Below are positions 8,930 through 29,642 of a stretch of 64,000 nt of DNA, in pieces (the first letter of the stretch is position 1; every line of letters begins with the position of its first letter). Made by a program: the position numbers and the translations under genes. This DNA comes from Bacteroidales bacterium. GTDB taxonomy: Bacteria; Bacteroidota; Bacteroidia; Bacteroidales; UBA3663. Location: assembly GCA_045576355.1 (NCBI GenBank), contig JAZNGG010000047.1, forward strand, positions 3,519 through 67,518, written 5' to 3'. The notes below the pieces were generated by a model. It did no database searches. It was not told the DNA's origin and saw only the letters and a list, made by a program, of their open reading frames with translations.

Positions 8930-11110
8930 ATGAAAAAGTTTTTAGCTCTATTACTTTTGTTTGTTGTCGTAGGGGGTCTTTCTATGGCGCAAACCAAAAA
9001 GGTTGATGCCTTTCCTGGCGCAGAAGGTGCCGGAAGATATACCACCGGTGGCCGAGGCGGAGTCGTTTATCATGTAACCTCATTGGAAGATGATGGGACT
9101 AAAAAAGGAACCCTCCGTTATGCGATTAACCAAAAAGGGGCTCGTACGATCGTGTTTGATGTGGGTGGAGTGATTGCCTTAAAAAGCAGACTTACCATAA
9201 AAAATGGAGATTTGACCATTGCAGGTCAGACTGCCCCTGGTGATGGTATTGTGCTTAAGAATTATGGGTTTCAAGTCTCTTGTAGTAATGTGATTGTACG
9301 TTTCATCCGTTGTCGTTTGGGTGATGGTATTTCAACCTGTGAAGACGATGCAGTCACTGCATGTGGTTCCAATGGAGAGTATCATGACATTATTTTTGAT
9401 CATGTTTCAGCCAGCTGGAGTATTGATGAATGCTTCTCCAGTTATGGCATTAAAAACATGACAGTACAGTGGTGTATGATTACTGAGAGTCTGTATCATT
9501 CCATCCATGGTAAAGGTGCGCATGGTTATGGCGGTATTTGGGGCGGATGTCCTGCCACATTCCATCATAACTTGATCGCTCATCATTCATCTCGTACACC
9601 GCGCCTTTGCGGTAGCCGTTATAGTAATGATCCTGCAGCAGAGCTGGTCGATATCCGCAATAATGTTTTCTATAACTACGGACCTACCAATGGCGGCTAT
9701 GCCGGAGAGGGAGGCTGTTTTAACTTTATCAATAATGCCTATAAGCCGGGTCCGATGACAGCAACTAAGACCTCTCTGTGTAATCGTATTTTCCAGGCTA
9801 GTCCTGATGATGGGTCCAATAATCAGCCGAAGGGTGTTTGGGGAATGTTTCACATGAGTGGCAACTGGTTTGATACTTCTTGCCCGGATCTGTCTGAGTC
9901 TGATCGTGCTAAAGGTGAGTCTGTCAATGCTGATAACTGGAGTGGTTTGCATGTTTCTGCGACACCTCCGGGAGGGAAGATTGCCATTGAGTCCAGTGTC
10001 CCATTCGCATGTGCTTCTGTGACCACTCACTCGGCTGAAGATGCTTATTATAAGGTGCTGGAGCATGCCGGATGTTCTTATTCTCGTGATGTGATTGATA
10101 CTCGTATTGCCAATGAGGTTGCTTCAGGGACCTATACTTACACCGGAAGTAAGGGCGGTAAATTAGGCCTTATCGATACACCGAGTGATGTCGAAGGTTA
10201 TGACATCTATAAAACTACCTCTAAGAGTTCTGATGACAGTAATAATAATGGTATTCCGGACAATAAAGAAGATCTCATTTTTGGCGGTTTGGTGGATGGC
10301 AATGCCTATGATAAATCTGCTGACTATACCAATTTGGAGTTCTATCTCAATGCGTTGGTGACCAAAATGACCAATAGTCAGTTAGATGGCGGTGTTCCCA
10401 GTGTAGATGGTACTTCCGGGTCTGGTACAGATAGCGGAAATGCTTTCATGGCAACAAAGACCGATGGAGGTTATGATTATTTTTGGTTTAATGAGGCCAA
10501 TGCTGATCAAGTGAATGCCTGGATCAGTGATGGTGTTATTACACTTAATAATGGGTCATTCAATAAGTCATTCAATAACAGCAACTCTACTCATACCGGA
10601 GCCTTGGCCTTAAAGAGTGGAGGAGGAGAGGTAATCTTTAAGTGTCCTTCTGTCTCTTCATTTGCCCTCTACATGTTCCGTACCGGTTCTTTTGCCGGAG
10701 AGGTCTATGTAAGTTCTGATGGGGTGGACTTTGGAGAACCTGTTCATACATTTAGTGGATCCAAATATATCATGGAATTAGATGTCACTTCGTTTGTGTC
10801 ATCGGCCAATGAAGTATTTGTCAAGGTGGTCAATACTTCCACCGGATCTTTGAGCATACAAGGGGCAAAGATCTTGTCTTCGACTACTTCGGGGATTGAG
10901 CAGGGCATGATTGCTGATAATGTCGTTTTCCGTTCAGATAGGATTGTTGCTCCCGGTGCCCGCCATTTGAGAGTATATGGTACTAATGGACAATGTGTCG
11001 CAGAGAAACTTGGCGATGAGATTTCTCTCGGTGCTTTGCCGCGCGGCATTTATGTAGTTCGAGTGGTGACTGAAGAGGGACGTGTCATTGTCCGTAAGGT
11101 AGTGAAGTAA
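8930..11110 (+). CDS. Pectate lyase (PL1-like) with a C-terminal beta-sandwich region and T9SS sorting domain
   Basis: 726 aa with a signal peptide. AFPGAEGAGRYTTGGRGG, AGQTAPG, IIFDHVSASWSIDE and HHSSRTPRL are PL1 landmarks. The tail is LRVYGTNGQCV...GIYVVRVVTEEGRVIVRKVVK. Confidence 0.85.
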   Translation: MKKFLALLLLFVVVGGLSMAQTKKVDAFPGAEGAGRYTTGGRGGVVYHVTSLEDDGTKKGTLRYAINQKGARTIVFDVGGVIALKSRLTIKNGDLTIAGQTAPGDGIVLKNYGFQVSCSNVIVRFIRCRLGDGISTCEDDAVTACGSNGEYHDIIFDHVSASWSIDECFSSYGIKNMTVQWCMITESLYHSIHGKGAHGYGGIWGGCPATFHHNLIAHHSSRTPRLCGSRYSNDPAAELVDIRNNVFYNYGPTNGGYAGEGGCFNFINNAYKPGPMTATKTSLCNRIFQASPDDGSNNQPKGVWGMFHMSGNWFDTSCPDLSESDRAKGESVNADNWSGLHVSATPPGGKIAIESSVPFACASVTTHSAEDAYYKVLEHAGCSYSRDVIDTRIANEVASGTYTYTGSKGGKLGLIDTPSDVEGYDIYKTTSKSSDDSNNNGIPDNKEDLIFGGLVDGNAYDKSADYTNLEFYLNALVTKMTNSQLDGGVPSVDGTSGSGTDSGNAFMATKTDGGYDYFWFNEANADQVNAWISDGVITLNNGSFNKSFNNSNSTHTGALALKSGGGEVIFKCPSVSSFALYMFRTGSFAGEVYVSSDGVDFGEPVHTFSGSKYIMELDVTSFVSSANEVFVKVVNTSTGSLSIQGAKILSSTTSGIEQGMIADNVVFRSDRIVAPGARHLRVYGTNGQCVAEKLGDEISLGALPRGIYVVRVVTEEGRVIVRKVVK

Positions 11111-11150
11111 AACTTATATTATTATTGTAAATATTTTCGTTTATTCTGTA

Positions 11151-11190
11151 AATGCGGTGTGTCGAACTCGATACACCGCATTGTTTTGTT
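11151..11190 (+). terminator. Rho-independent terminator
   Basis: aatgcggtgt (11151-11160) pairs with acaccgcatt (11173-11182), followed by gttttgtt. Confidence 0.75.
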
Positions 11191-11245
11191 GTGTGTGAGT
11201 AAATTATTATATTGGTGTTCATAATCACTTCTTATTAATTAAATT

Positions 11246-12445
11246 ATGGCATCAATTAAAGTAAAATTTCGTCCTTCAGCAGTGGCGCAAAAAGAAGGAA
11301 CAATTTATTATCAAGTAATTCAAAACCGCTTAATCCGTCATATAAATACAGATTATCGTTTGTTTGTTTCCGAGTGGAATAAGGATATTGGAAAAATTAT
11401 TATTGGAACGTCTGAAAGACAGAGTTATTTGCTTTCTGTCGAGACTCAGATAAAAAGAGATATTATTTGTCTAAGAGATATTGTCTATCGATTAGAGCAT
11501 TCTATGCTAGATTTTACCTCTGATGAGATAATTGATCTTTTTGAAAGACGGACTAAAGAATATTCTTTCTTTAAGTTTACTAATGATATAATTTTACAAA
11601 TGCGACAACGAAGAAAAATTCGGACATCCGATAATTATCGCGCTACATTAAATAGTTTCTCTCTTTTCAGGAATGGAAAAGATATTTTGTTTTCAGAAAT
11701 AAATACCGAAATACTTTTGAAGTATGAAGCTTTTTTGAGATATCGGGGAGTGAGTAAAAATAGCAGTTCGTTTTATATGTGTGTATTTCGAGCCCTTTAT
11801 AATCGTGCAGTAGATAATGATCTGACGTCACAGCGGTATCCTTTTAAGTATGTTTATACTGGAATAGATAAAACTATCAAACGTGCAATCTCCTTGAAAG
11901 TAATAAAAACTATCAAAAAAATAGACCTTTCTCATTGTCCGTCATTAGATTTTGCACGAGATATGTTCTTGTTTTCATTTTATACGAGGGGAATGTCTTT
12001 TATCGATATGGCTTATTTGAAAAAACGAGATTTAAAAAGAGGGACGTTATGTTATAAACGGCGTAAAACCGGACAAGTGTTTCTTATTAGATGGGAGTCT
12101 TGCATGCAGGAGATTCTGGATAAATGGAATAATCCGGAAGAACCATATATGTTGCCAATATTGAATAGTGACACTAAGAATGAATATTGCTTATATAGAC
12201 ATCGTTTGTCGGAGGTTAATAAAAATTTGAAAGAGGTAGCTCAACTCGTTAATATTTCACTCCCTTTAACGATGTATGTGGCTCGTCATTCTTGGGCCAA
12301 TGCAGCTAAAAACATGAAAATACCTCTTTCGGTTATTAGTGAAAGTATGGGGCATGATTCTGAAAAAACAACCAGAATTTATCTATCTTCGTTTGACACC
12401 AATGTTATAGATGATGCGAATTCGATTATTTTAAATAAACTCTAA
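11246..12445 (+). CDS. Tyrosine site-specific recombinase (phage-integrase family, Bacteroides 'PUL-adjacent' type)
   Basis: 399 aa. The N-terminal arm-type region starts MASIKVKFRPS...GTIYYQVI, followed by a SAM-like core-binding region. The catalytic region is ARHSWANAA ... MGHDSEKTTRIYL (R/H/R/Y-type residues). The gene is AT-rich relative to its neighbours. Confidence 0.85.
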   Translation: MASIKVKFRPSAVAQKEGTIYYQVIQNRLIRHINTDYRLFVSEWNKDIGKIIIGTSERQSYLLSVETQIKRDIICLRDIVYRLEHSMLDFTSDEIIDLFERRTKEYSFFKFTNDIILQMRQRRKIRTSDNYRATLNSFSLFRNGKDILFSEINTEILLKYEAFLRYRGVSKNSSSFYMCVFRALYNRAVDNDLTSQRYPFKYVYTGIDKTIKRAISLKVIKTIKKIDLSHCPSLDFARDMFLFSFYTRGMSFIDMAYLKKRDLKRGTLCYKRRKTGQVFLIRWESCMQEILDKWNNPEEPYMLPILNSDTKNEYCLYRHRLSEVNKNLKEVAQLVNISLPLTMYVARHSWANAAKNMKIPLSVISESMGHDSEKTTRIYLSSFDTNVIDDANSIILNKL

Positions 12446-12496
12446 CTATTTTAGATTATTGGGATTTCCCCTAGTATTTAGTGTTTGTTTTTCTTT

Positions 12497-12533
12497 CTTA
12501 TTGGTCCTCTCTTATTAAGAGATGACCAATAAG
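12497..12533. repeat. 37-bp near-perfect palindrome; candidate recombinase site and/or recombinase-gene terminator
   Basis: cttattggtc-c-tctctta-t-taagaga-t-gaccaataag. The only mismatch is the c/t pair at 12507/12523. Confidence 0.85.
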
Positions 12534-12635
12534 TATTTTCTCCCCTAAAATCAAATAGTTATGAATTTTAAAAAGTGAGAGATTTTAAACATACTATGAT
12601 TTTTTTAAGTTTTTTGTTAATTAGAGGGGATTTTA

Positions 12636-12666
12636 TTTGCATTTATAAATAATATTTTTACCTTTG
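12636..12666 (+). promoter_or_regulatory. Bacteroides-type promoter facing susC (-33 TTTG, -7 TAccTTTG)
   Basis: TTTG at 12636-12639 and tacctttg at 12659-12666, 19 bp apart, 178 bp upstream of ATG 12844. Confidence 0.7.
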
Positions 12667-12674
12667 TCCAAAAA

Positions 12675-12696
12675 TTGGTCCTCTCTTAATAAGAGA
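12675..12696. repeat. 22-bp partner site of the 12497-12533 palindrome
   Basis: ttggtcctctcttaataagaga equals 12501-12522 in direct orientation (21/22). It also equals the reverse complement of 12508-12529 (21/22). Confidence 0.85.
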
Positions 12697-12843
12697 TAGA
12701 TATATAATATACTATCTATGAGGAAGATATAAAGCAGAGTATGGATGATTTTCTGATACCTAAAAACGTATTATCTGATACCAATATGTGCAGTTAATAA
12801 ATTGAGTTTTTTAGACAATTAAATAACATAAACACAAATCACA

Positions 12844-15800
12844 ATGAAAAACAGAGTAAGATTAACGACCTTAACCCTTACCATGCTTTCCAGTCTTTTT
12901 GCCTTTGTTCCTGTTGAGGTGAATGCTGCTCAAAGCGCAGTTTCGCAAGGTGTTAATGAGTCAAGAAAGGTTACCGGTCAAGTGTTCGACGAATTTGGTG
13001 AACCCATGATAGGTGTAACTATCGTTGTTCAGGGTACTACTGATGGTACCATCACAGATCTTGATGGAAACTTCTCTATTGCAGTTCCGAGTTCTAATAG
13101 TGTCTTGGAAGTGCGTTATATCGGTTATAAGACTTTGACTTTCCCCGCCAATCCAAGTAAGAAATTGGTTGTCAATATGGAGCAGGACAATGTCGGACTT
13201 GAAGAAGTTGTCGTAGTTGGTTATGGTACGGTGAAGAAACGTGATCTTACCGGAGCTGTTACTACCGTGAAAGCAGAAGAGATCAAAGCTATCCCGTTGC
13301 CCAACCCGGTTGAAGCATTGCAAGGTAAAGTTGCCGGTCTTGACATTACCCGTTCTTCGGGAGCAGCCGGAGCCGGAGCCAGCATGCAGTTGCGTGGTAA
13401 TCGCTCTCTTACAGCCTCAGGTGAACCGCTTGTTCTCATTGATGGTTTGGCAGGAAGTTTGACTACATTAAATGCTAACGATATCGAAAGCATAGAAGTG
13501 TTGAAAGATGCCGCTTCTACAGCAGTATATGGTTCTGCCGGTGCCAATGGTATTATCATTGTGACTACCAAGAGCGGTAAAGCAGGAAAGACTAAAGTGA
13601 ATTTCAACTCCTATGTTGGTATCAATGGCTGGTCCACTGTGCCGGAGATGTATCATGGAGAGGATTACTTCAACTTGAGAAAAAATGCCATGATTGCTGC
13701 TGGAACCTATACGACAGACGAAGATGTGCTCAATGAGAGTGCCTATGCCGCATACCTTGCCGGACAGGATATCGACTGGGCAGACGAATTGCTCAAGACC
13801 GGTATCACTCAGAATTATTCTCTTTCTGTCAGTGGAGGTACTGAAAAGACCAAGGCATATTTGTCTTTCAACTTCTCAGGTGAGGAGGGTCAGTATAGCA
13901 ATGACAATTATCGCGTCTATTCTACCAATTCCAAGATTGATCATCAGGTAAATAAGATGGTCAATATCGGAGCCAACTTCCAGGGCAGCTATACTTATAA
14001 GAATTCAGCTTATGCCAAACTTGAGAATCTTCTTATTGCAAGTCCCATCGGAAGTCTGTATGATGAGGATGGAAATATTAACCCCTTCCCGGTGGCAGGA
14101 GATGCTTCTACCGTTAGTTTGTTGACCAATAATAAATCAACATACCGTAACAACGGACATAATGTAAACGTCTATCTTAATCCTTATATCCGCATCAACC
14201 CCTTGAAAGGTCTTACTTTCGAGAGCCGTTTGAGTTTGGCTTTAGGTTACAACAAGAGCAATCGTTTCAGCGGTATCGGTTCATATAATTACTATCGCGC
14301 TGATGCGTTGGCTGATGGCACTACTACAAGCGGAGAAGTTTCTGCAAGTGTTGCTAATACCTTCTCATATAATTATAAGTGGGAAAACATTGTTACCTAT
14401 AACTTCAATCTTTTAGAGAAGCATGACATTACTTTGACCGGTGTGACTTCTTGGAATCACAACCGTCAGGAGTATTCTTATTCAGCATCAGACAATCTGA
14501 CTGCCAACGAATATTTGTGGCATAACTTAGGCACTGGTCAGAATCAGCAGGCAGCTTCTTCTTACACCATGTCCAAAGGTCTCGGTTTCGTAGGCCGTAT
14601 CAATTATTCTTATTTGGGTCGCTATTTGGCTTCCGCTTCTGTGCGTCATGATGGGTCTTCCCGTTTGGCAGATGGCAATCGTTGGGATACTTTCCCGGCA
14701 TTCTCTTTGGGATGGCGCATCTCAGACGAGAAGTTTATGGAGAACACCAGTTCATGGCTCGATAACTTGAAGATCCGTGGCGGTTGGGGTGTAACCGGTA
14801 CAGCTTCCATCAGTGCCTACCAGACACAAGCCAACCTTATACAGTCCTATCGCATCTTAGGCAATGAGACTTTGATCTCCTATAACTATCCACAGCAGAT
14901 CGTGGATCCTAACCTCGGATGGGAAAAGTCTTATAACACCAATATCGGTTTGGATGCCAGCTTCATGAATGGTCGCATCAGTATGACCGCTGACTACTAT
15001 GTGACTAAAACTAAGGACATTATCTGGACTCGTCTCGTGCCTGTGACTAATGGTGGTTTCAACTCCAGCTCACAATACACCACTACCACCAATATCTGTG
15101 AATCGGAAAATAGCGGTATTGAGTTGGCTTTGACCGGTCGTCCGATTATTGCAGAGAAAGAGGGTGATTTCACTTGGACTATCGATGCAACCTTTACTTA
15201 TAGCAAAGAGAAATTGACCAGCTTCTCTTCTGATGATGGTTCTTCTCAATACATCAATGGCAACCGTATCTTGAAAGAGGGCGAACCGATCAACTCTTTC
15301 TATGGATATAAATTGGATGGTACTTGGAAACTCTCTGAAGCCGAGGAGGCAAAGATCTTTGGTGCAGAGCCTGGTGACTTGAAGATCAATTGTGCAGATA
15401 TCAAGCGTCATGTGGATGCTGATGGTAATGTTTATTACACAGGGGTCGATGCAGAAGGCAACGATGTGACCTATGATGTAAATAATCCGTATGATGACCA
15501 GCAGGCTCAGCAAGTGCTCGGACATCCTCAGCCGGACTGGACTATGGGATTGAAGAACACATTTACATGGAAGAATTTTGACCTCTCTGTATATCTCTAC
15601 TGGCGTTTCGGTCAGATGATCAATTATAGCATGTTGGGTCGATTCAATACGAGCGCTAGCAATAACTTCCCGACTTACTTCGACTATTGGACAGAAGAGA
15701 CCGGCAACCAGAATCACTACTATCCTGCTTTGAATGCTGCCAAAGATTTGAATCAGATGGACGGATGGAGCGGTTTGTCATTTGTCGATGGATCTTTCTG

Positions 15801-16011
15801 GAAAGTGAAGAACATCACATTGGGTTATACATTGCCTAAGAAGGCTTTGAACAAGCTCCATATTGAGAACCTCCGTGTTTATGGCACGATCACTAATCCG
15901 TTCGTATTCGCTAAGAGCGATCTCCTCGAGGATTATGATCCCGAAATGGCTGGTAGCCTGGATTATCCGCTCACCAAGCAGCTGGTATTTGGTGTGAACG
16001 TAACATTCTAA
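12844..16011 (+). CDS. SusC-family TonB-dependent outer-membrane transporter (PUL1)
   Basis: 1055 aa. Signal peptide, carboxypeptidase-regulatory-like domain (VTGQVFDEFGEPMIGVTIVVQGT..DLDGNFSI), plug, barrel, and terminal ...VFGVNVTF. Confidence 0.95.
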   Translation: MKNRVRLTTLTLTMLSSLFAFVPVEVNAAQSAVSQGVNESRKVTGQVFDEFGEPMIGVTIVVQGTTDGTITDLDGNFSIAVPSSNSVLEVRYIGYKTLTFPANPSKKLVVNMEQDNVGLEEVVVVGYGTVKKRDLTGAVTTVKAEEIKAIPLPNPVEALQGKVAGLDITRSSGAAGAGASMQLRGNRSLTASGEPLVLIDGLAGSLTTLNANDIESIEVLKDAASTAVYGSAGANGIIIVTTKSGKAGKTKVNFNSYVGINGWSTVPEMYHGEDYFNLRKNAMIAAGTYTTDEDVLNESAYAAYLAGQDIDWADELLKTGITQNYSLSVSGGTEKTKAYLSFNFSGEEGQYSNDNYRVYSTNSKIDHQVNKMVNIGANFQGSYTYKNSAYAKLENLLIASPIGSLYDEDGNINPFPVAGDASTVSLLTNNKSTYRNNGHNVNVYLNPYIRINPLKGLTFESRLSLALGYNKSNRFSGIGSYNYYRADALADGTTTSGEVSASVANTFSYNYKWENIVTYNFNLLEKHDITLTGVTSWNHNRQEYSYSASDNLTANEYLWHNLGTGQNQQAASSYTMSKGLGFVGRINYSYLGRYLASASVRHDGSSRLADGNRWDTFPAFSLGWRISDEKFMENTSSWLDNLKIRGGWGVTGTASISAYQTQANLIQSYRILGNETLISYNYPQQIVDPNLGWEKSYNTNIGLDASFMNGRISMTADYYVTKTKDIIWTRLVPVTNGGFNSSSQYTTTTNICESENSGIELALTGRPIIAEKEGDFTWTIDATFTYSKEKLTSFSSDDGSSQYINGNRILKEGEPINSFYGYKLDGTWKLSEAEEAKIFGAEPGDLKINCADIKRHVDADGNVYYTGVDAEGNDVTYDVNNPYDDQQAQQVLGHPQPDWTMGLKNTFTWKNFDLSVYLYWRFGQMINYSMLGRFNTSASNNFPTYFDYWTEETGNQNHYYPALNAAKDLNQMDGWSGLSFVDGSFWKVKNITLGYTLPKKALNKLHIENLRVYGTITNPFVFAKSDLLEDYDPEMAGSLDYPLTKQLVFGVNVTF

Positions 16012-16034
16012 TCTTATTAAAATCATAAGCAAAC

Positions 16035-18008
16035 ATGAAAAAGATATTATTATATACAGCCGTGGGTGTCATGGGAGCAATGAGTTTTACCTCTTGTGAA
16101 CTTGATGAATTTAACCCCTCTGCAGGTTCTTCTACGTTAGAGAATTATCAGACGTGGTCCGGTTTGCAGACCGAGTGTTACTCGACACTTTATCACGAAT
16201 TGTATTCTAAGGAGGACTTCTTATTCTTCTCTGAGTGTGGTACAGATCTTTGGCTCAATCCCGCCGGCAAGAGCTATGCTGCTCAGGTGTTCTATTATGA
16301 CGGACTTGGTGTGGCAAGTGCTCAGGCTCGCAAGACTTGGCAGCAAGCATATTCTGTGATCGCTACCTGTAATAGTGTTATCAATAATGCTGATAACGTA
16401 TCAGATGGAGATCCTCAAGACATTAAGATCCTGACTGCAGAGGCTAAAGTGATCCGTGCTTTCATGCACTTGACTTTGACCACCTACTTTGGTCCTATCA
16501 CCCTTTGTACTACTGAGGTTGGTGTCTCTGACAATACTCCTAAGCGTAATAGCTTGCAGGAGATCTATAACTCTATCACTAAAGACTTGCAGGAGGCTGC
16601 AGAAGATTTGGAGGTAGAGCCATTTGGAGGCAACTATGGTCGTGTTTCCAAAAAGACTGCTTTGGGTCTTTTGGCTCGTGCTTATGCTCAGGGAGCCGGT
16701 GAGGGTCTGACAGAAAATGGGACATCTTATTGGCAGCGTGCTAAAGAGGTGGCAGAAGATATGATCACCAATAAAGATCAATATGGCATGTATCTCTATG
16801 ACAATGTAGATGATCTTTGGGCACAAGCGAATAACCGTAATAACAAGGAGGCTCTTTTCATGGCAGCCGGTTTGGATGCACATGGCGCTGATGCAGGTAT
16901 GGCAGGTACTTATTTCAACTGCTTGAATTACCTCTATAATTTCACCATGACAGATCCGAGTGTTATGTCTTTGATCTATAAGACTAAGAATACTTCCAAT
17001 ATTTACCTCGGCACCAAATCTACTCCGGTGATGGCTCCGACTAAGTATGCTATGGACGTCTTTGATGCCTCTTGGGACAAACGTTATGAAAATTCATTCA
17101 TGACTGCTTTTGGTAGCTTTGCCAATGATGGAGTTCCTGCCCAGTCTTTTGCCAGAATGACTTTGCCATTGTCCAGCGCTATTTTGTCAAGATATGGTAT
17201 GAATACCGAGTTGGGTAACCAAAAGATATATCCTTATGCGGCTATGAAGCAGGTAGAATCACCCATTGGTAAGCAGAATGTCGCTGTAGGTATCTACGAA
17301 AAAGGTGGAACTCAAAAAGTGCTTGAAACCAAGAATGCCTATGTTATTGAGCACCCACTCGCTACAGACGAAGATCGTATCCTTGTTTGGCTTTCTAAAG
17401 ATCCTCTAACCGTAGAGCAGAAACATCAATACAAGTGTTTCATCATGAACATTGATGATTTGTTTGATCAGGATGGCAATTATTCGGAAGAGCAATGGAA
17501 ACCCGGTTCTTTGGCTACTACTGCCAACACTTTGTTCCCCTCATTGATCAAGTTCAACTGGTGTTATGACGGAGTTGTGCGTAACGAAGGTTATGAAGCT
17601 AAGAATGGTGACATCGCCATTATGCGTTCTGCGGAGGTTTACTTGATCGCTGCTGAGGCCAATGTGGCTTTGGGCAACCCCGGTGCAGCTGCTCCTTATC
17701 TTAAGGTGCTTCGCGATCGTGCTGCTCGCACAGGAACTACTGCCCCGGCATTGTCTAACCCGACCGAACAGGATATTCTTGATGAATATGCCAGAGAACT
17801 TGTCGGCGAACACATGCGTTGGCCCATCTTGAAGCGTCATGGCGCGTTGAAGTCTGCGCTCGAACAGCATAATAAGAAAGCTGCTGCTTCTTTCAAGGAA
17901 CATCATGTTTGGCGTCCGATTCCGGAGTTGTTCCTCGATCAGATTTCTAATAAAGAACAATATGGAGACAATGGTTATGGCACTACAGCCAAATCCGGTC
18001 TCGAATAA
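16035..18008 (+). CDS. SusD-family lipoprotein (PUL1)
   Basis: 657 aa. Lipobox MSFTSC, located 23 bp after susC. SusD/RagB-like helical features (YLIAAEANVALGN). Confidence 0.9.
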   Translation: MKKILLYTAVGVMGAMSFTSCELDEFNPSAGSSTLENYQTWSGLQTECYSTLYHELYSKEDFLFFSECGTDLWLNPAGKSYAAQVFYYDGLGVASAQARKTWQQAYSVIATCNSVINNADNVSDGDPQDIKILTAEAKVIRAFMHLTLTTYFGPITLCTTEVGVSDNTPKRNSLQEIYNSITKDLQEAAEDLEVEPFGGNYGRVSKKTALGLLARAYAQGAGEGLTENGTSYWQRAKEVAEDMITNKDQYGMYLYDNVDDLWAQANNRNNKEALFMAAGLDAHGADAGMAGTYFNCLNYLYNFTMTDPSVMSLIYKTKNTSNIYLGTKSTPVMAPTKYAMDVFDASWDKRYENSFMTAFGSFANDGVPAQSFARMTLPLSSAILSRYGMNTELGNQKIYPYAAMKQVESPIGKQNVAVGIYEKGGTQKVLETKNAYVIEHPLATDEDRILVWLSKDPLTVEQKHQYKCFIMNIDDLFDQDGNYSEEQWKPGSLATTANTLFPSLIKFNWCYDGVVRNEGYEAKNGDIAIMRSAEVYLIAAEANVALGNPGAAAPYLKVLRDRAARTGTTAPALSNPTEQDILDEYARELVGEHMRWPILKRHGALKSALEQHNKKAAASFKEHHVWRPIPELFLDQISNKEQYGDNGYGTTAKSGLE

Positions 18009-18017
18009 AGCATAAAA

Positions 18018-18051
18018 TGACATTGCTCCAATGTCATTTGGAGCAATGTCA
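18018..18051 (+). promoter_or_regulatory. Perfect 14-bp intercistronic hairpin after susD
   Basis: tgacattgctccaa (18018-18031), loop tgtcat, ttggagcaatgtca (18038-18051). There is no strong T-run. Confidence 0.6.
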
Positions 18052-18096
18052 CTTTCATTCAAAACAACCCTATTATTAACTTAAAACAATCTATTT

Positions 18097-19638
18097 ATGA
18101 AAAAAATCTTTACTTTGGTTGCTACAGCGTTTATCGCTAGTGCATCTTTTGCACAACACGCAGAGTGGACTGCAGCTCAGTTGCCGACAGAAGTTTTTGC
18201 CGACAAAGCTGCTGCTGAAGCTGCTGGTTTTAACACCATGTGGTGGAGCGAGGGTAACAAGGCTCAGTGGCTTGGTATGCCTGCTCAGGATCTCATCAAG
18301 ACCGATGAGGTAACTATTTCTTTGGCTTGCCCTTATAACTATGTTTCTACAGGTAGTGGTAAGTATTCTGGTAAGAATTATGCCTATAAGGTAATTATGG
18401 GTATGAACAACTCTACTCGTGATGGTATCGATCCTTTGTATTTCCTCGAAGGCTTGACCAACAATGATTATGTACGTAAGGCTGGTGATTCTGATCAGGG
18501 TAATGTAGTTAATGATGCTATCATCAAGATTGAGATGGCTGCTACTCCTGCTGATGCCGGAGATCCTTGGACTAGTGCTGTGACTTTCCGTGTCAATCGT
18601 AGTAGCAATGCTGCTGCTTTCTATGTAGTTGACGCTACTAAGTCTAAGCTCGTTGTTCAGACCATGATGCGTAACAATGGTAGTTATGTTGCTGATGACA
18701 TCATCCGCTTCAATGTTGAGCAGGGTCACACTTATTATTGTATGGCTTCTGAAAAGGGTTCTGTTGAGCTTTATGGCATCTCTTTCGATGGTCCGAACTC
18801 TGACCAGTTTGAAGTAGTTGCTAACGAAGAGAACACTACTGCTCTTTGGACTGCTGACATGTTGCCTACTGCAAAGTTTGCTACTGTTGACGAGGCTGTT
18901 GCTGCCGGTTATAACACTTTATGGGGTATGGGTGACTACCTTGGTATGCCTGCTCAGGATCTCATCAAGACTGATGAAATCACTGTATCTTTGGCTTGTC
19001 CTTTCAACTATATTTCTGCTGTTAATAAGATCGGTGGTGGTAAAAAGCATACTTATAAAGTGATCATGGGTATGAACAACTCTACACGTGATGGTATCGA
19101 TCCTCTCTACTTCCTCGAAGGTTTGACAAACAATGATTATGTACGCACTGCTGGTACTTCTGATCAGGGTAATGTTGTTAACGATGCTATCTTGAAGATC
19201 GAGGTTGCTCCTCAGGCTGAAGGTACAGATCCTCATTGCGGACGTTTGATTTTCAACTATAGCCGTGGTAACAACAATGGTGCATTCTATGTAGTAGATG
19301 CTACTAAGAGCATTCCGGTATATCAGGACGTAACTCGTATTAACAACTCTATCGAGAAGAAGCAGGCTGCTATTATCAACGTTTATCCCGGTCGTACATA
19401 TTATGTAATGGCTTCTGATAAGGGTTCTATTGAGCTTTATAACGTAGGTTTCTGCTCTGCAGCTTCTGAGAAGTGGGTTACTTCTTCTACTCCCAATGGT
19501 ATTGAGAACGTTAAGGTTGCTGAGACTTCTGCTTCCAATAAGATTTTCTCTATCGATGGTCGCTACGTTGGTACTGATAAGGCCGGTTTGAAGAGTGGTC
19601 TTTATATCATGAACGGCAAGAAAGTTCTTGTTAAGTAA
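18097..19638 (+). CDS. Secreted PUL1 protein of unknown function: two tandem copies of a ~210-aa domain plus a T9SS sorting domain
   Basis: 513 aa with signal peptide ...ASASFAQ. Copy A is 18160-18786 and copy B is 18841-19452, offset by 681 bp, with long identical runs (LGMPAQDLIKTDE, KVIMGMNNSTRDGIDPLYFLEGLTNNDYVR, DQGNVVNDAI). The tail is KIFSIDGRYVG...GLYIMNGKKVLVK. Confidence 0.8.
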   Translation: MKKIFTLVATAFIASASFAQHAEWTAAQLPTEVFADKAAAEAAGFNTMWWSEGNKAQWLGMPAQDLIKTDEVTISLACPYNYVSTGSGKYSGKNYAYKVIMGMNNSTRDGIDPLYFLEGLTNNDYVRKAGDSDQGNVVNDAIIKIEMAATPADAGDPWTSAVTFRVNRSSNAAAFYVVDATKSKLVVQTMMRNNGSYVADDIIRFNVEQGHTYYCMASEKGSVELYGISFDGPNSDQFEVVANEENTTALWTADMLPTAKFATVDEAVAAGYNTLWGMGDYLGMPAQDLIKTDEITVSLACPFNYISAVNKIGGGKKHTYKVIMGMNNSTRDGIDPLYFLEGLTNNDYVRTAGTSDQGNVVNDAILKIEVAPQAEGTDPHCGRLIFNYSRGNNNGAFYVVDATKSIPVYQDVTRINNSIEKKQAAIINVYPGRTYYVMASDKGSIELYNVGFCSAASEKWVTSSTPNGIENVKVAETSASNKIFSIDGRYVGTDKAGLKSGLYIMNGKKVLVK

Positions 19639-19892: not shown

Positions 19893-22800
19893 ATGAAAGC
19901 GTTGAAATATCTGTTTTGTATCCTCTTGTGTGCAGTGTCATCCTTGGGCTATGCCAAAATTGAGGGAAGTCTTGATCCCGATTGTGTCGTTGCGGAGTGG
20001 AGCAACTCTTCCACTTATCCCAAAGTCATAGATATCAATTTTAGTGATGAGATGTGGCCCGGAGAGACTTGGGTGAAAGAGACCGGACGGGATTGTCCCG
20101 AGTGGAGTGATAGTTGCTATGTCAATGCCATCATAGATGTGCCTGCCAATGGTACGGGAGATGTGAAATATCCTGTCCTTTTTCACAATTGTGTCTTTGC
20201 CAATAAAAATTCCTATCAAGGCTATGCAGGTGCTACTGCTGCATTCTGCCGACAATATTATTTAGGAGAGACCGCGTCAGGAAATAGTGCCACTACCTAT
20301 AATAACTGGACTGTCGAGCATCACAAAAAATATATTGAGGATCACATCAGATATAATGACAAGGGAACACCGATCTATGGTGAAGCCGGATTCGTACAGT
20401 TCTGTCGTAGTGCTGCTTTTGTCGATATGGCTACTCGCAAAAAAGTGAGTGTACATGGATGGATGGAGATTGATCATATTCCTTATGTGGAGCGCATACA
20501 GTGGGCTTGGTCTTCTACCTCATGGGGGCGAGGCATCAAGTGTGATGTGAAAATTGGTGATGGAGCGTGGAAGCCCCTCGTCTGGATGGGTTCAGATAAG
20601 CATAAAGCCGGTTATACGGTCTTTAGTGATCAAGGTTATTTCATGGAGAACGTGATTGATGCTCATGATGTCTCCATTCGTTGGAGGATTTGGGATGGTG
20701 ATAACGTTACCACTTTAGTCCAAACCAAAGAGGATGGATCATCCGCTTTTGGCATTCCGATTGACTCCACAAAACAACAGCAGGCTGCACGTGTGCATAA
20801 GATTCAGATTTTTGGAGATATGATCACGGCTGAGCAGGCAGACTATGCTCGTCAGAATCCCGTTGGAAACGTGGGAAAATTGTCTGATATAGATAATGGT
20901 AGCGACGCTAAGGAGGATTATGCTCCTGATGCCAATGCCCCGGTCGTAGTCTATACTGTGGCTAAAGATGGAAGTGGAGATTTTCTAAAGATACAGGATG
21001 CCATTGATGCTGTCCAAAATGGTCAGCGTGGCATTATTTATATTCGTCCGGGCATTTATGAAGAAAACGTTTATGCCGGTAGGAGTGAAAACAAGAATAA
21101 GTTTATCAGCTTGATCGGAGAAGACAAGGAGACCACTATTTTGACCTCTTCGGTAGATCGTGGAGCCAATAATCCTAATAATAAGTATTATGATTGTGCA
21201 GCGCTCAACGTTTATACTTCGCGTTTCTATGCAGAAAATCTGACGATTCGTAATACAGCCGGCAACGTTGGCCAAGCTGAAGCATTGTTTACCAATGGAG
21301 ATGCTCATCTCTTTAATAATTGCATTCTTTCCGGATATCAGGATACTTATAAGGCAAACTCCGGAGGCCGTGGTTATTTCACCCGTTGTCTCATTGAGGG
21401 TGCGACCGACTTTATCTATGATGGCGGTTTGGAGTGGTTTGAAGATTGTGAAATCCGCTGTGTGCAGGGTGGAGGATATATCACGGCTGCTGCAGATGCA
21501 AGTCTGACCTTGACACAGGCTTTACATCCCAATCTCAGTGTCTCTCCGTTTTATGCCGGTCTTTTCTTCCGCAACTGCAATGTAAAAGCCGAAGAGGGTG
21601 TGAAAAATGGAGCATATTATTTGGGACGTCCCTGGAAGGAGGGTTGTGGCACGATGTTTATTAACTGTAAATTAGGTGCTCATATCAATGCCAAAGGATG
21701 GAAGGAATGGGATGGCACTGAAAACAAGTGCTCTTACTTCGAGTATGGGAGCAAGGATCCTTCCGGTGCTCTGATCAATACGGCTTCGCGTGTCTCCTGG
21801 AGTCATCAGGCAACAGCCATAGAGGTGGAGGAGTATATGAATCCCGAGTTCTTGTTTGCCAAGTTCTCAGATGTGCCGTTCGATTATAATTATATCTTAA
21901 AGGGGGCTGCTGCTCCGATGAATTTCTCCCTCACTTCCTCCGGATTCTCATGGGAAAGTGATGATATGGCGGTGGCATATATCATCTATAAGGATGGACA
22001 ATTTGCGGCGATTACGACTTCTCCGGCTTATAGTAAGGAGACGACAGATGAATCTGTGTATAGTGTGAGAAGTATCTCTCGTCATGGTGTTACCTCTCCG
22101 GCAGTTGTTGCCAAAGAGCCGACGCAGTTGCTCGCATTCCCTACAGCCGAGGGTTTTGGTAAGTTTACGACCGGAGGTCGTGGCGGCAAGGTGGTGACAG
22201 TTACTTCGCTGACCAATGATGGCGTAGGGTCTTTGAGATGGGCTTTTTCACAATATCCCGGTGAGCCGATCACGATCGTTTTTGCAGTAAGTGGAGAAAT
22301 ACGACTCGCAGAGGAGTTAAACATCAAACGCAGTGACTGGACATTGGCTGGTCAGACTGCCCCTGGAGAGGGTATTGTTATTACCCATAACAAAGTCAAT
22401 GTGGGTGGTTCGCAAAATTTTATTGTGCGCAATGTCCGTTTCCGCGCAGGACAGCGCAATACGAACGATGAAATTTTGGCAACCAATGCTTTAGGATCAG
22501 AAAACTGTTCCAATTATATATTTGACCATTGCTCTTTCGGATGGTCGGTTGAGGAGAATATGAATACTGCCGATAGTCATTTTCTCACGGTGCAATACAG
22601 CATAGTGCATGAGGGGCTGTATAATAGCGGCCACTCTAAGGGCGCCCGTGGCTATGGATGTCAATGGGGTGGTTCGCCGGCAACCTATCATCATAATCTC
22701 CTGGCTCATAATAAGTCTCGCAGTCCCCGTTTCAATGGTGCTCGTGGAGAGGATTATGTGGTATTTATGGAGTATATCAATAATGTGAATTATAATTTCG

Positions 22801-23804
22801 GTGATGCCGGTGGGTGTTATGGCGGGGAGAATACAGCCGCTATCACCGAATATAATGGTCTGAACTCTGCACATGAGTGTAATTTTATCAATAATTACTA
22901 CAAGCCGGGTCCGGCTTCTTCATCGGCATCTTCGGTTAAATTTGTCAATTCCAGTTATGCTCGTAGCGGAGCTACTTCATGGGCACCTGCAAAGTGGTAT
23001 CTGAGCGGTAATGTTATCGAGGGTAATTCTTCGGCAAGTGCTAATAACTGGAATGCCATGCGGGCAGAGACCTATTCTTTGGCGCAGATACGCAGTGATG
23101 AGCGTATTGTGACGGCTACACCCTATTATAAATATACTGTGATGGGTGGGGTCGGAAAATATATGCCGGAGCAATATATGATGTATGACTATGAGACTGC
23201 CGAACAAGCTTATGCGACAGTGGTGACAAAAGCCGGAACGGTGAATAGTGATTTAATCGAACGCCGTATCTTGAAAGAGGCACGTGAGGGTGGTGCAACT
23301 ACCTATGGAGGCTCTTCGATCGGTAAAGGAAAGGGGATCATTGATACAGAAAATGACTGCGAAGGTTTTTACGCCTATACGACAGATTATGTGGTTCCCA
23401 TCGATAGCGATAAAGATGGTATGCCGGACTCATGGGAGACAGAGAATGGATTGAATCCTATGCTACAAGACAACAATACTCTGAATGCTGATGGATATAC
23501 GGCTCTGGAGGTTTATCTGAACGGATTGATGGGAGAGAAGATGGATCGTAATTTCACCACCGGACTTCGCCATGAGTCCATGGAGCAATTGCAGGTCACT
23601 TATCATCCGGAGAGCCGTATGGTCTATTTCTCCCCTTCGGCTATAGGAGGAACTCTCCATGTATATTCGACCGCAGGTCTTTTGCTTCAAGTCCGGCAGA
23701 TTGATTCTGTTGCCCTCTCTCTTGCGGATTGTCCATCCGGATATGCTTTATTGCAGATCTCAGGTCGTGGATTCTGTCCGAGGTTGTTGAAGGTAGCGTT
23801 ATGA
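19893..23804 (+). CDS. Multidomain pectin enzyme: unknown N-terminal domain, CE8 pectin methylesterase, PL1 pectate lyase, Ca-binding-type repeat and T9SS sorting domain
   Basis: 1303 aa. CE8 landmarks from about 20943: GDFLKIQDAIDAV, QAEAL, GYQDTY, DFIYDGG, YLGRPW. PL1 landmarks from about 22128: AFPTAEGFGKFTTGGRGG, AGQTAPG, YIFDHCSFGWSVEE, HNKSRSPRF. Also DSDKDGMPDSWETENGLNP, and the tail LHVYSTAGLLL... Confidence 0.85.
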   Translation: MKALKYLFCILLCAVSSLGYAKIEGSLDPDCVVAEWSNSSTYPKVIDINFSDEMWPGETWVKETGRDCPEWSDSCYVNAIIDVPANGTGDVKYPVLFHNCVFANKNSYQGYAGATAAFCRQYYLGETASGNSATTYNNWTVEHHKKYIEDHIRYNDKGTPIYGEAGFVQFCRSAAFVDMATRKKVSVHGWMEIDHIPYVERIQWAWSSTSWGRGIKCDVKIGDGAWKPLVWMGSDKHKAGYTVFSDQGYFMENVIDAHDVSIRWRIWDGDNVTTLVQTKEDGSSAFGIPIDSTKQQQAARVHKIQIFGDMITAEQADYARQNPVGNVGKLSDIDNGSDAKEDYAPDANAPVVVYTVAKDGSGDFLKIQDAIDAVQNGQRGIIYIRPGIYEENVYAGRSENKNKFISLIGEDKETTILTSSVDRGANNPNNKYYDCAALNVYTSRFYAENLTIRNTAGNVGQAEALFTNGDAHLFNNCILSGYQDTYKANSGGRGYFTRCLIEGATDFIYDGGLEWFEDCEIRCVQGGGYITAAADASLTLTQALHPNLSVSPFYAGLFFRNCNVKAEEGVKNGAYYLGRPWKEGCGTMFINCKLGAHINAKGWKEWDGTENKCSYFEYGSKDPSGALINTASRVSWSHQATAIEVEEYMNPEFLFAKFSDVPFDYNYILKGAAAPMNFSLTSSGFSWESDDMAVAYIIYKDGQFAAITTSPAYSKETTDESVYSVRSISRHGVTSPAVVAKEPTQLLAFPTAEGFGKFTTGGRGGKVVTVTSLTNDGVGSLRWAFSQYPGEPITIVFAVSGEIRLAEELNIKRSDWTLAGQTAPGEGIVITHNKVNVGGSQNFIVRNVRFRAGQRNTNDEILATNALGSENCSNYIFDHCSFGWSVEENMNTADSHFLTVQYSIVHEGLYNSGHSKGARGYGCQWGGSPATYHHNLLAHNKSRSPRFNGARGEDYVVFMEYINNVNYNFGDAGGCYGGENTAAITEYNGLNSAHECNFINNYYKPGPASSSASSVKFVNSSYARSGATSWAPAKWYLSGNVIEGNSSASANNWNAMRAETYSLAQIRSDERIVTATPYYKYTVMGGVGKYMPEQYMMYDYETAEQAYATVVTKAGTVNSDLIERRILKEAREGGATTYGGSSIGKGKGIIDTENDCEGFYAYTTDYVVPIDSDKDGMPDSWETENGLNPMLQDNNTLNADGYTALEVYLNGLMGEKMDRNFTTGLRHESMEQLQVTYHPESRMVYFSPSAIGGTLHVYSTAGLLLQVRQIDSVALSLADCPSGYALLQISGRGFCPRLLKVAL

Positions 23805-24333: not shown

Positions 24334-26016
24334 ATGGATTGGTTAGTCAGTCTTTTTGCCGGTTCCGGAGTGGCGCACTCTGTGTTTTTAGTGGCGTTGA
24401 CCATTGCCATAGGATTGTTTTTCAGCAGGTTTAAGATCTGTGGAGTCTCCTTAGGAGTTACATGGATATTGTTTGCCGGCATCTTTGCCGGGCATTTCGG
24501 ATTGGAGTTGGATCCGGTCACCTCTCACTTTGTCAAAGAGTTCGGTCTCATCCTCTTCATCTATTCCATCGGCATCCAGGTCGGACCGGGATTCTTCTCC
24601 TCGTTTCGCAAAGGGGGTGTCACGCTCAATATGCTTGCCTCCGGTGTCGTTCTGCTGGGGTGTACGGTGGCCTATGCGATCCATCTGGTGACCGGAGAAA
24701 ACCTTTTTGCCATGATCGGCGTCCTTTATGGCGCTGTGACCAATACCCCCGGTCTGGGTGCGGCACAGCAGACATTTTCCGATATGCACGGCGGTGAGAA
24801 TAACTCGCTCTTTGCTCAAGGCTACGCTGTGGCATATCCGTTGGGTGTGGTGGGCATCATACTCTCCATCATTTTGATCAAAATGATATTCCGCATCAGG
24901 TTTGATAAAGAGCAGTCGCTCTTTCAGGCTGCTGCCCGTCTCAATAGTAAAGCCCTTGAGGCTGTCACCATCAAGATCGAGAATGACGCGGTGGTCGGTA
25001 AGACTGTGGCTGAAATTCAGGAGATCTCCGGACGCCAGTGTGTGATGTCCCGTATCTTGCACCGCGAAACGAGTGACATCGAACTGGTAGTAAGCGATAC
25101 AAAGTTGCAGAAGGGTGATCGACTCTTTTTGGTCGCTTCGCCTGCCGATGCCTCTGCGCTTAGTGTCCTCCTCGGCCGACGTATAGAGGGGATGATGACC
25201 GAGCAGTGGAATGCCCTCGATCATAACGACCTGATCAGTGAGCGCATGGTGGTGACCAATCCCAAACTCAATGGCAAACGTTTGGGTGACCTGGCATTGC
25301 GCAAGACGTTTAATGTCAATATCACCCGAGTGAAGCGTTCGGGGGTAGATATCATCGCTCATCCCGGGTTGCTCTTGCAGCTTGGTGACCGTCTGGTCGT
25401 GGTGGGTAAAGCTGAGAGCATCCGTAAGATCCAGCCCATGCTCGGAGACTCTGTCAAGAAACTTGATGAGCCTAATCTGATGGCGATATTCCTGGGCATC
25501 TCCTTGGGTGTCATATTAGGATCTATGCCGATCCTTTTCCCCGGTATGCCCGTGCCGGTGAAACTGGGACTTGCCGGAGGACCTCTGATCATCTCCATAT
25601 TGGTCTCCAAGTTCGGACCGCAACTCAAATTGGTCACTTATACCACCTCTTCGGCCAATCTTCTGATGCGACAGGTCGGCATCTGTATGTTTATGGCCGC
25701 TGTCGGATTGGGTGCCGGCAAAGGTTTTGTCGATACGGTCCTGCAAGGGGGATACTGGTGGGTCCTTTATGGTGTATTGATCACTATGATTCCCTGCTTG
25801 GTGGTGGGTGTCATTGCCCGACGTTTTTTCCGTCTCAGTTATTTCACGATTGCCGGCATGATTTCCGGCTCGATGACCGATCCACCGGCTTTGGCTTATA
25901 GCAATAGCATCTGTGGCAATGATCAGGCTTCTGTCGCATATTCCACCGTCTATCCGCTGACCATGTTCCTGCGTGTCTTGACTGCTCAGGTGATGGTACT
26001 TATGGGAGGATATTGA
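24334..26016 (+). CDS. AAE-family (YidE/YbjL-like, aspartate:alanine exchanger family) transporter with two central RCK_C/TrkA-C domains
   Basis: 560 aa. Two hydrophobic halves flank two soluble repeats (VTIKIENDAVVGKTVAEI... and VVTNPKLNGKRLGDLALR...). Confidence 0.8.
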   Translation: MDWLVSLFAGSGVAHSVFLVALTIAIGLFFSRFKICGVSLGVTWILFAGIFAGHFGLELDPVTSHFVKEFGLILFIYSIGIQVGPGFFSSFRKGGVTLNMLASGVVLLGCTVAYAIHLVTGENLFAMIGVLYGAVTNTPGLGAAQQTFSDMHGGENNSLFAQGYAVAYPLGVVGIILSIILIKMIFRIRFDKEQSLFQAAARLNSKALEAVTIKIENDAVVGKTVAEIQEISGRQCVMSRILHRETSDIELVVSDTKLQKGDRLFLVASPADASALSVLLGRRIEGMMTEQWNALDHNDLISERMVVTNPKLNGKRLGDLALRKTFNVNITRVKRSGVDIIAHPGLLLQLGDRLVVVGKAESIRKIQPMLGDSVKKLDEPNLMAIFLGISLGVILGSMPILFPGMPVPVKLGLAGGPLIISILVSKFGPQLKLVTYTTSSANLLMRQVGICMFMAAVGLGAGKGFVDTVLQGGYWWVLYGVLITMIPCLVVGVIARRFFRLSYFTIAGMISGSMTDPPALAYSNSICGNDQASVAYSTVYPLTMFLRVLTAQVMVLMGGY

Positions 26017-26305: not shown

Positions 26306-26390
26306 CTGCTCGACTAAGCGGATTTTATGTCATTTTTGTAAAAAATCAGAGTTTATTATTATATTTATGTATCATTTCAAAGTAACAGTT

Positions 26391-29627: not shown

Positions 29628-29642
29628 TAAAGAAAAGTCGAT

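Follow-up and report, generated by a model that had tools for sequence, protein, structure and literature searches.

How is a polysaccharide utilisation locus (PUL) controlled when no sensor for its substrate is visible among its genes? This question is raised by a pectin PUL in a 64,000-nucleotide stretch of DNA from a Bacteroidales bacterium (GenBank assembly GCA_045576355.1, contig JAZNGG010000047.1, positions 3,519 to 67,518), which we refer to as the window and in whose numbering all unlabelled coordinates are given. Domain scans of 8930-33219 found no hybrid two-component system (HTCS), SusR, extracytoplasmic function (ECF) sigma factor or anti-sigma factor gene, in agreement with an earlier note made from the sequence of this DNA. 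Instead, the gene of a 399-aa tyrosine recombinase (11246-12445, + strand) lies directly upstream of susC, and the 398 bp between its stop codon and susC contain a putative promoter bracketed by related sites. The earlier note had read this arrangement as an invertible promoter. Based on the anatomy of the locus and on its relatives in other genomes, we suggest that the recombinase-plus-promoter-inverton cassette is probably an active, or recently active, ON/OFF phase-variation switch for the susC-susD pectin operon.

A predicted promoter between two inverted recombination sites

The proximal of the two sites is a 37-bp near-palindrome (12497-12533) which begins 52 nt past the recombinase stop codon and consists of two 18-nt arms, 17/18 complementary and 1 nt apart. 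Within it lies the 15-nt core TCTCTTATTAAGAGA (12508-12522). The distal site (12674-12696) carries the core TCTCTTAATAAGAGA at 12682-12696. Both elements had been described in the earlier note and were recovered by repeat finding, which extended the matches between them to 22/23 in inverted orientation (12508-12530 and 12674-12696, with 143 nt between the 23-nt arms) and to 23/24 in direct orientation (12500-12523 and 12674-12697). The cores are exact reverse complements of each other, TCTCTTA-T-TAAGAGA in the proximal and TCTCTTA-A-TAAGAGA in the distal site. Apart from the central base each core reads as a palindrome, which is why the two sites also align “directly”, with a single mismatch that is the central base itself. 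Since this base is the only asymmetric, direction-giving position, and it is the one that mismatches in the direct alignment, the meaningful relation of the two sites is, as read from the bases themselves, inverted and not direct. The proximal site reaches the length of a 37-bp palindrome because the 8-nt arm ATTGGTCC is found on both its sides, whereas the distal site has this arm on its inner side only.

The inverted pair is the sole one in the 64-kb window with a score of at least 15 and a spacer of 90-260 nt. In 40 first-order Markov simulations of the window such pairs numbered 0.075 on average, and the observed score of 19 was never reached. Likewise the core TCTCTTNNNAAGAGA (15 nt, at most one mismatch) occurs in the window only at the two sites, with 0.32 occurrences expected.

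Between the sites lies a predicted Bacteroides-type promoter (12636-12666, + strand), with a −33 element TTTG at 12636-12639 and a −7 element TAccTTTG at 12659-12666. This TTTG-N19-TAccTTTG arrangement is the only exact −7/−33 pair in the spacer, as had been stated before, and by its consensus it points at susC, so that the segment has been captured in the ON orientation. Seven nt separate the end of the −7 box from the distal repeat, and susC starts 148 bp downstream of that repeat; from the promoter prediction, the susC transcript would be expected to start at about 12672-12680.

We propose that the recombinase would bind the two 15-bp cores as pairs of TCTCTT/AAGAGA half-sites around the asymmetric centre. 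With the cores inverted, strand exchange in the central overlap would then flip the segment of ~160 bp between them (12523-12681), whose extent agrees with the length class of 128 related loci and with an alignment to the family consensus. In the captured orientation the only consensus promoter of the spacer would fire across the distal site into susC (ON); after inversion it would face the 3′ end of the recombinase gene and leave the operon silent (OFF). An in-silico OFF reference was made as the reverse complement of 12516-12688, giving TCTTATTGGTCCTCTCTTATTAAGAGAGGACCAATTTTTGGACAAAGGTA as the OFF proximal junction and GGGGAGAAAATACTTATTGGTCATCTCTTAATAAGAGATAGATAT as the OFF distal junction. 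That the window copy flips, how often it does so, and that this promoter is the operon's only one are points that we infer.

A family of recombinase-plus-inverton cassettes

Pfam assigns the 399-aa open reading frame (ORF) to Phage_int_SAM_5 (67.9 bits) and Phage_integrase (35.2 bits), both above their cut-offs, with a marginal match to Arm-DNA-bind_5, and thus upholds its designation as a tyrosine recombinase. The catalytic C-terminus aligns to IntI4 and XerA, and residues R248, K274, R347, H348, W350, H370 and Y379 are invariant across 158 family members. In the window the ORF is intact and all catalytic residues are present. An exact look-up of the recombinase sequence returned no record; thousands of relatives share 50-62% identity with it, and closer ones were found only within its own species.

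We collected 160 loci (L001-L160) whose recombinases are 50-61% identical to that of the window over residues 1-399, 80 of them from species-representative genomes and 80 from metagenomes, and analysed them with our own scripts. At least 230 bp downstream of the recombinase are available in 142 of the 160, and 128 of these 142 carry an inverted-repeat pair with the core TCTCTTnnnAAGAGA. The pair starts 20-60 bp past the stop codon, encloses a spacer of ~135-165 bp and has a TAnnTTTG −7 box ~7-12 nt inside one repeat. In the window the core is exact, the arm starts 62 nt after the stop codon, 143 nt form the spacer and 7 nt separate the −7 box from the repeat; aligned to the family consensus, the inner block has its −7 box in the family-typical position.

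Across the family the −7 box is found in two mirror-image positions, either near the proximal repeat and pointing at the recombinase (OFF) or near the distal repeat and pointing downstream (ON). By this measure ~104 family loci are OFF and ~19 ON, the window not being among the ~19. In the closest recombinase relatives, L001 and L002 (61%), the flanks are collinear and nearly identical, and the inner segment is 94% identical only as its reverse complement. Similarly, nine ON loci each have an OFF partner whose 150-bp flanks are 90-100% identical on either side; when one inner segment is reverse-complemented, identity within it is 73-100% (91-100% in eight of the nine), versus 48-59% in the forward direction. 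From these ON/OFF pairs, with matching flanks and an inner segment alike only as its reverse complement, we conclude that the cassette family, as recorded in assembled genomes and metagenomes, inverts in nature. The distribution of contig ends points the same way: twelve fall within 120 bp downstream of the recombinase stop codon versus one within 120 bp upstream of its start codon, and several family contigs end exactly at the proximal core. Breaks at the inverton are expected where a sample contains both orientations of the segment or several copies of it.

We grouped the first two ORFs that follow the distal repeat into clusters and compared representatives of the clusters with Pfam. Where a downstream gene was called, roughly two in three loci carry restriction-modification (R-M) or defence-type genes. 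The largest sets are Type ISP enzymes (28 loci), a small MmeI-methylase-like ORF followed by Eco57I/ResIII proteins (16 loci), SNF2/PLD helicases (14 loci) and an unannotated 338-aa ORF followed by a 1329-aa Eco57I/ResIII protein (12 loci), and further R-M cargo comprises Type III Mod, Type I HsdM and Eco57I/N6-methylase proteins. Other loci carry a BspA-type leucine-rich repeat surface protein, an MBOAT acyltransferase, an FtsK-like ATPase, an Hsp70-like protein or a radical-SAM protein. The defence cargo often begins 0-65 bp from the distal repeat and is mostly OFF. Here the window departs from its relatives: no R-M or defence operon lies within ~65 bp of the distal repeat, its susC is a singleton among the first-ORF cargoes of the family, and SusC/SusD cargo is atypical. 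Thus, by its sequence and layout, the window element is a member of a large Bacteroidales family of recombinase-plus-inverton cassettes that is itself known in kind, an ordinary type of switch with an unusual cargo.

Many family members also share an 11-nt motif, TGTTTAGCAAA. Allowing one mismatch, it is found just past the recombinase stop codon in 80 of 129 loci (the window counted in the 129), without any change of orientation among them. In ~91 loci the invertible segment holds another copy, which relative to the outer one is direct in the OFF state and inverted in the ON state. The motif may be an arm-type or accessory site which sets the switching bias.

The locus in other strains of the species

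Contigs of the same species were found in Logan assemblies via members of the 90% clusters of the recombinase and of SusC, the cassette-bearing samples being SRR24653763 and ERR11638249. Two other routes gave no same-species copy: an exact search of metagenome contigs for the palindrome in either state returned 0 matches, and protein-guided scans of genome and metagenome contigs returned no relative above 61% identity. The two cassette-bearing contigs, L174 and L175, are 99-99.6% identical to the window over 8.2 kb. Both are collinear with it across the spacer and thus ON, and their invertons are matched by the family profile over their full length. The recombinase ORF of L175 is also intact.

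The centres of the cores differ jointly between strains. The window has T in the proximal and A in the distal core, and both L174 and L175 have A and T, respectively, so that the two cores remain exact inverted copies of each other. Inversion alone was rejected as the cause of this swap, since inverting exact repeats leaves them unchanged. The joint change would represent one compensatory change or gene-conversion event (n = 1), and is consistent with a need for identical overlaps in the inverted alignment.

A second allele is seen in L172 (3521-3957) and L173 (1-81), in which flanks 97-98% identical to those of the window enclose 437 bp in place of window 11199-12800. Still recognisable in this cassette-less allele are a block of ~75-100 nt that spans the promoter (window ~12577-12670), the final 45 nt of the susC leader and the leader repeat TCTGATACC described below. 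The cassette is thus polymorphic (present or absent) within the species as far as these contigs represent it. Because the allele keeps the promoter without the repeats, the promoter presumably works, or worked, free of the switch. The allele differs from the product expected of recombination between the two sites. The idea that it holds a fossil inverton is unsupported, as the family nhmmer profile gave no match to L172.

Orthologous loci in other species

Orthologues of the window SusC were found at 85%, 83%, 76% and ~74% identity, and core-type pairs are present in the PULs of two other species. In the locus of the 85% orthologue (L161, 5160-5795; ERZ28633347) the pair consists of ATCTCTTATTAGGAGATA and TATCTCCTAATAAGAGAT, with 599 bp between them. 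Two divergent susC genes flank this segment, a TAtcTTTG box adjoins the repeat nearer the orthologous susC, and no recombinase is encoded within 6 kb. A flip would shift the promoter from one PUL to the other, which makes a two-PUL toggle possible. The loci of the 76% orthologue (L162-165) have an AraC-type regulator and a large histidine kinase upstream, where the window has no regulator. Here a slightly degenerate pair, ATCTCCTTGCAGGAGAT and ATCTCCTGCAAGGGGAA, lies 172 nt apart around the susC promoter (L162:5637-5848, also in L164 and L165), and the family profile matches the promoter region of L162-165 with E = 0.0017. As in L161, the repeats of L162 have no adjacent recombinase. No pair of this core type was found in the remaining SusC orthologue loci.

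The operon and its surroundings

The operon controlled by the proposed switch would comprise at least susC (12844-16011), susD (16035-18008) and a conserved ORF of 513 aa (18097-19638), all on the + strand, and thus span 12844-19638. This assignment draws on the ORF list, on Pfam and on the gene order susC, susD, ORF of approximately 510 aa, which is kept in the orthologous loci. A 255-bp gap separates the 513-aa ORF from the gene of a 1303-aa pectinesterase (19893-23804, + strand; Pfam). Upstream of the recombinase, and outside the control of the switch, lies a pectate-lyase-like gene (8930-11110, + strand) which combines an NCBIfam PelZ-like N-terminus with a type IX secretion system sorting tail (Por_Secre_tail). 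It is followed by an intrinsic terminator (11151-11182, + strand), itself also an inverted repeat and the sole terminator-like site in 11000-13000. With the pectate-lyase-like gene upstream and the pectinesterase gene downstream, the label of a pectin PUL, based on these annotations, seems reasonable.

The susC leader (12697-12843, + strand) contains a direct repeat, TCTGATACC, in two copies 22 bp apart (12752-12760 and 12774-12782), which is kept in the otherwise diverged cassette-less allele of L172; no further exact copy occurs in the 64-kb window. The repeat could be an operator or leader element giving extra, substrate-dependent control. An Rfam scan of 11000-13000 found no RNA family.

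A second susC/susD pair lies further downstream on the same strand (26367-31253), preceded by an Asp-Al_Ex/TrkA_C transporter gene (24334-26016); neither a repeat core nor a recombinase is associated with this pair. The only regulator-like protein among the scanned ORFs is a LuxR/GerE-type regulator with a hemerythrin domain, encoded on the − strand at 49184-50140, far from the PUL.

Competing explanations

An active or recently active switch is suggested chiefly by homology, through a family that occurs in both orientations and whose contigs break at the inverton, and also by the invariant catalytic residues, by core centres that changed jointly between strains, by a repeat pair that is unique in the window and beyond chance, by a promoter consensus found only inside the bracketed segment, by a PUL without a sensor or regulator gene, and by the core-type pairs in the orthologous PULs of two other species. 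Several observations weigh against it. The promoter and its transcription start are predicted from the consensus. The window inverton matches the family profile only in fragments, and the accessory motif TGTTTAGCAAA is absent from the window at up to one mismatch. No OFF copy of the window locus was found in the collections searched, the window, L174 and L175 all being ON, although three consensus assemblies give low power; all orthologous PUL copies with a pair (L161, L162-165) are ON as well. The recombinase gene of L174 (L174:2402-3605) has a +1 insertion at the position of window 11744 and a −1 deletion at that of 12353, which leave ORFs of 170 and 210 aa and which reflect either a pseudogene, and hence a locked switch, or a homopolymer or assembly error. 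Finally, L172 and L173 lack the recombinase and both cores, yet retain the promoter block in the ON direction. The uniform ON state, the L174 frameshifts, the repeats of L161 and L162 without an adjacent recombinase, the same promoter without repeats in L172/L173 and the missing accessory motif would all fit a decaying or locked-ON inverton, one which originated in the switch family and no longer flips to any meaningful extent, its promoter now being an ordinary one, possibly regulated through the leader; the conserved leader repeat also suggests another layer of control. We regard this as a real contender, if clearly the less probable explanation. It sits poorly with the intact recombinase ORFs of the window and of L175, with all their catalytic residues, and with repeats that are still 22/23 identical and whose centres have changed in a compensatory way. 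Moreover, the three consensus assemblies show the majority orientation only, and an ON-biased switch would look alike. The earlier proposal of an ON/OFF switch for the pectin operon is partly supported and in essence right as to the kind of system: the inverton anatomy stands, and the family is found in both states. A flipped copy of the window locus itself was not seen, the same-species cassettes and the repeat-bearing orthologous loci all being ON.

Two further explanations account for the sites in other ways. The recombinase might serve a small mobile or excisable element as its integrase, with the sites acting as attachment sites and excision or deletion as the main reaction. Its arm-binding-like, SAM-like and catalytic architecture resembles that of integrases encoded by Bacteroides conjugative transposons, the two sites agree in direct orientation at 23/24 positions of their left arms, and the cassette is present or absent within the species. 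We nonetheless hold this to be improbable. The direct alignment mismatches at the only asymmetric base of the cores, and family members differ by inversion and not by excision. Deletion would leave a promoter-free hybrid site of the form ...ATTGGTCCTCTCTTA[A/T]TAAGAGATAGATAT; the cassette-less allele of L172/L173 retains the promoter, has neither a hybrid site nor a target duplication, and is not the predicted excision product. No transfer or mobilisation genes are encoded in 1-34 kb of the window, and on these grounds an IntDOT-like integrative mobile element was rejected. The suggestion that the same pair of sites could also support deletion finds no support: a locus with the recombinase, one hybrid site and no promoter, as deletion would predict, was not observed, and the direct match is a by-product of the palindrome. 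Chemically such a deletion is conceivable, since only one mismatched base would stand in the way and relatives such as IntDOT are known to tolerate heterology. Even less credible is a reading in which the palindrome serves only to terminate the recombinase gene, with the second site there by chance or as an operator-like copy. The proximal site does lie 52 nt past the stop codon, and its predicted RNA hairpin is strong (−29.4 kcal/mol, z = −4.6, for 12440-12560). However, it is not called a terminator, as no following T-run meets the rule, the chance expectation for the pair is about zero, and the core pair recurs at the same spacing after 128 related recombinase genes, where it brackets segments seen in both orientations. 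A terminator as the sole explanation, which the earlier note had named as a possible refutation, is contradicted by this family-wide pairing. At most, the proximal palindrome may have an additional role, since its predicted fold may double as a hairpin ending the recombinase mRNA.

Returning to the proposed ON/OFF switch, a wider and more speculative extension would join it to the family. The cassette, consisting of an IntDOT-like recombinase, a ~190-bp inverton and accessory sites, would be a portable module that mostly gates OFF defence genes and that was here recruited to a pectin PUL, replacing a sensor-regulator and being kept ON. As related PULs keep sites without a local recombinase, such sites would have to be acted on in trans; L161 would be a toggle, and TGTTTAGCAAA would set the bias. 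We offer this only tentatively, and consider it doubtful as a whole.

Significance and comparison with known systems

The locus goes beyond the routine in three respects: it places a PUL under a cassette family that otherwise gates defence genes, this PUL contains no sensor-regulator, and the cassette is present or absent within a species. If the switch is active, a fraction of the population would stochastically shut down pectin uptake by a system that lacks a visible substrate sensor. The population could in this way hedge its bets on a nutrient system, or evade phages or antibodies directed against the surface complex of SusC and SusD. The result for the family may be of more use than the single locus, in that it defines a recognisable cassette of fixed geometry, mostly placed before R-M or defence genes in gut and rumen Bacteroidales. 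As both of its states are visible in public assemblies, silent defence genes and phase-variable PULs would become annotatable from sequence alone.

A literature search on the core sequences returned nothing relevant. The S-layer invertons of the BT1927 type in Bacteroides thetaiotaomicron have the motif GTTAC-N7-GTAAC and elements of 256-301 bp (Taketani et al. 2015, PMC4611039; Porter et al. 2020). Like the window element they are promoter invertons adjacent to a recombinase, and their sites are imperfect palindromes which differ in a central trinucleotide. The window, however, has a TCTCTT-N3-AAGAGA core and a segment of ~160 bp, and an assignment to the BT1927 type was rejected as its core lacks the GTTAC-N7-GTAAC motif.

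The earlier note had cited phase variation of SusC/SusD loci in B. fragilis as a precedent. This is indeed driven by a tyrosine recombinase, but it is a shufflon of large inversions (PMC4747536) and not a simple promoter flip. The SusC/SusD shufflons, B. fragilis Tsr0667 and B. thetaiotaomicron BT1040-1046 with BT1041, rearrange multiple genes through sites that lie within the 5′ ends of several susC genes (PMC4747536; bioRxiv 10.1101/521070). They share with the window a tyrosine-recombinase-linked variation in SusC/SusD expression, which for the window is our proposal. The window differs in having a single intergenic promoter flip and both susC genes on the + strand. A shufflon was also rejected for want of long-range inverted repeats, the only other pair of at least 20 nt in 8000-34000 being weak (80% complementary, 18933/20830).

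Nearer in layout, though likened by layout and not by sequence, are the local promoter invertons beside the tyrosine recombinases Tsr15 and Tsr19/BF2766 of B. fragilis (Weinacht et al. 2004; PMC4747536). In these, as in the window, a tyrosine recombinase lies next to a short invertible promoter before a surface-structure operon. Their cargo, in contrast, is fimbriae and exopolysaccharide, and Tsr19 also acts on a distant site.

The nearest described case that we found is the BT4014-BT4013 restriction locus of B. thetaiotaomicron, which has a recombinase gene upstream and inverted repeats of ~18 bp around a near-consensus promoter (Porter et al. 2020, bioRxiv 10.1101/521070). The reference genome has this locus in the OFF state, and PCR together with amplicon sequencing confirmed that it inverts (bioRxiv 10.1101/521070). 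Likened by description only, it resembles the relatives of the window cassette, most of which likewise drive restriction-modification genes and are OFF. The window cassette itself differs from it in both respects, in that its cargo is a SusC/SusD PUL and its promoter is in the ON state.

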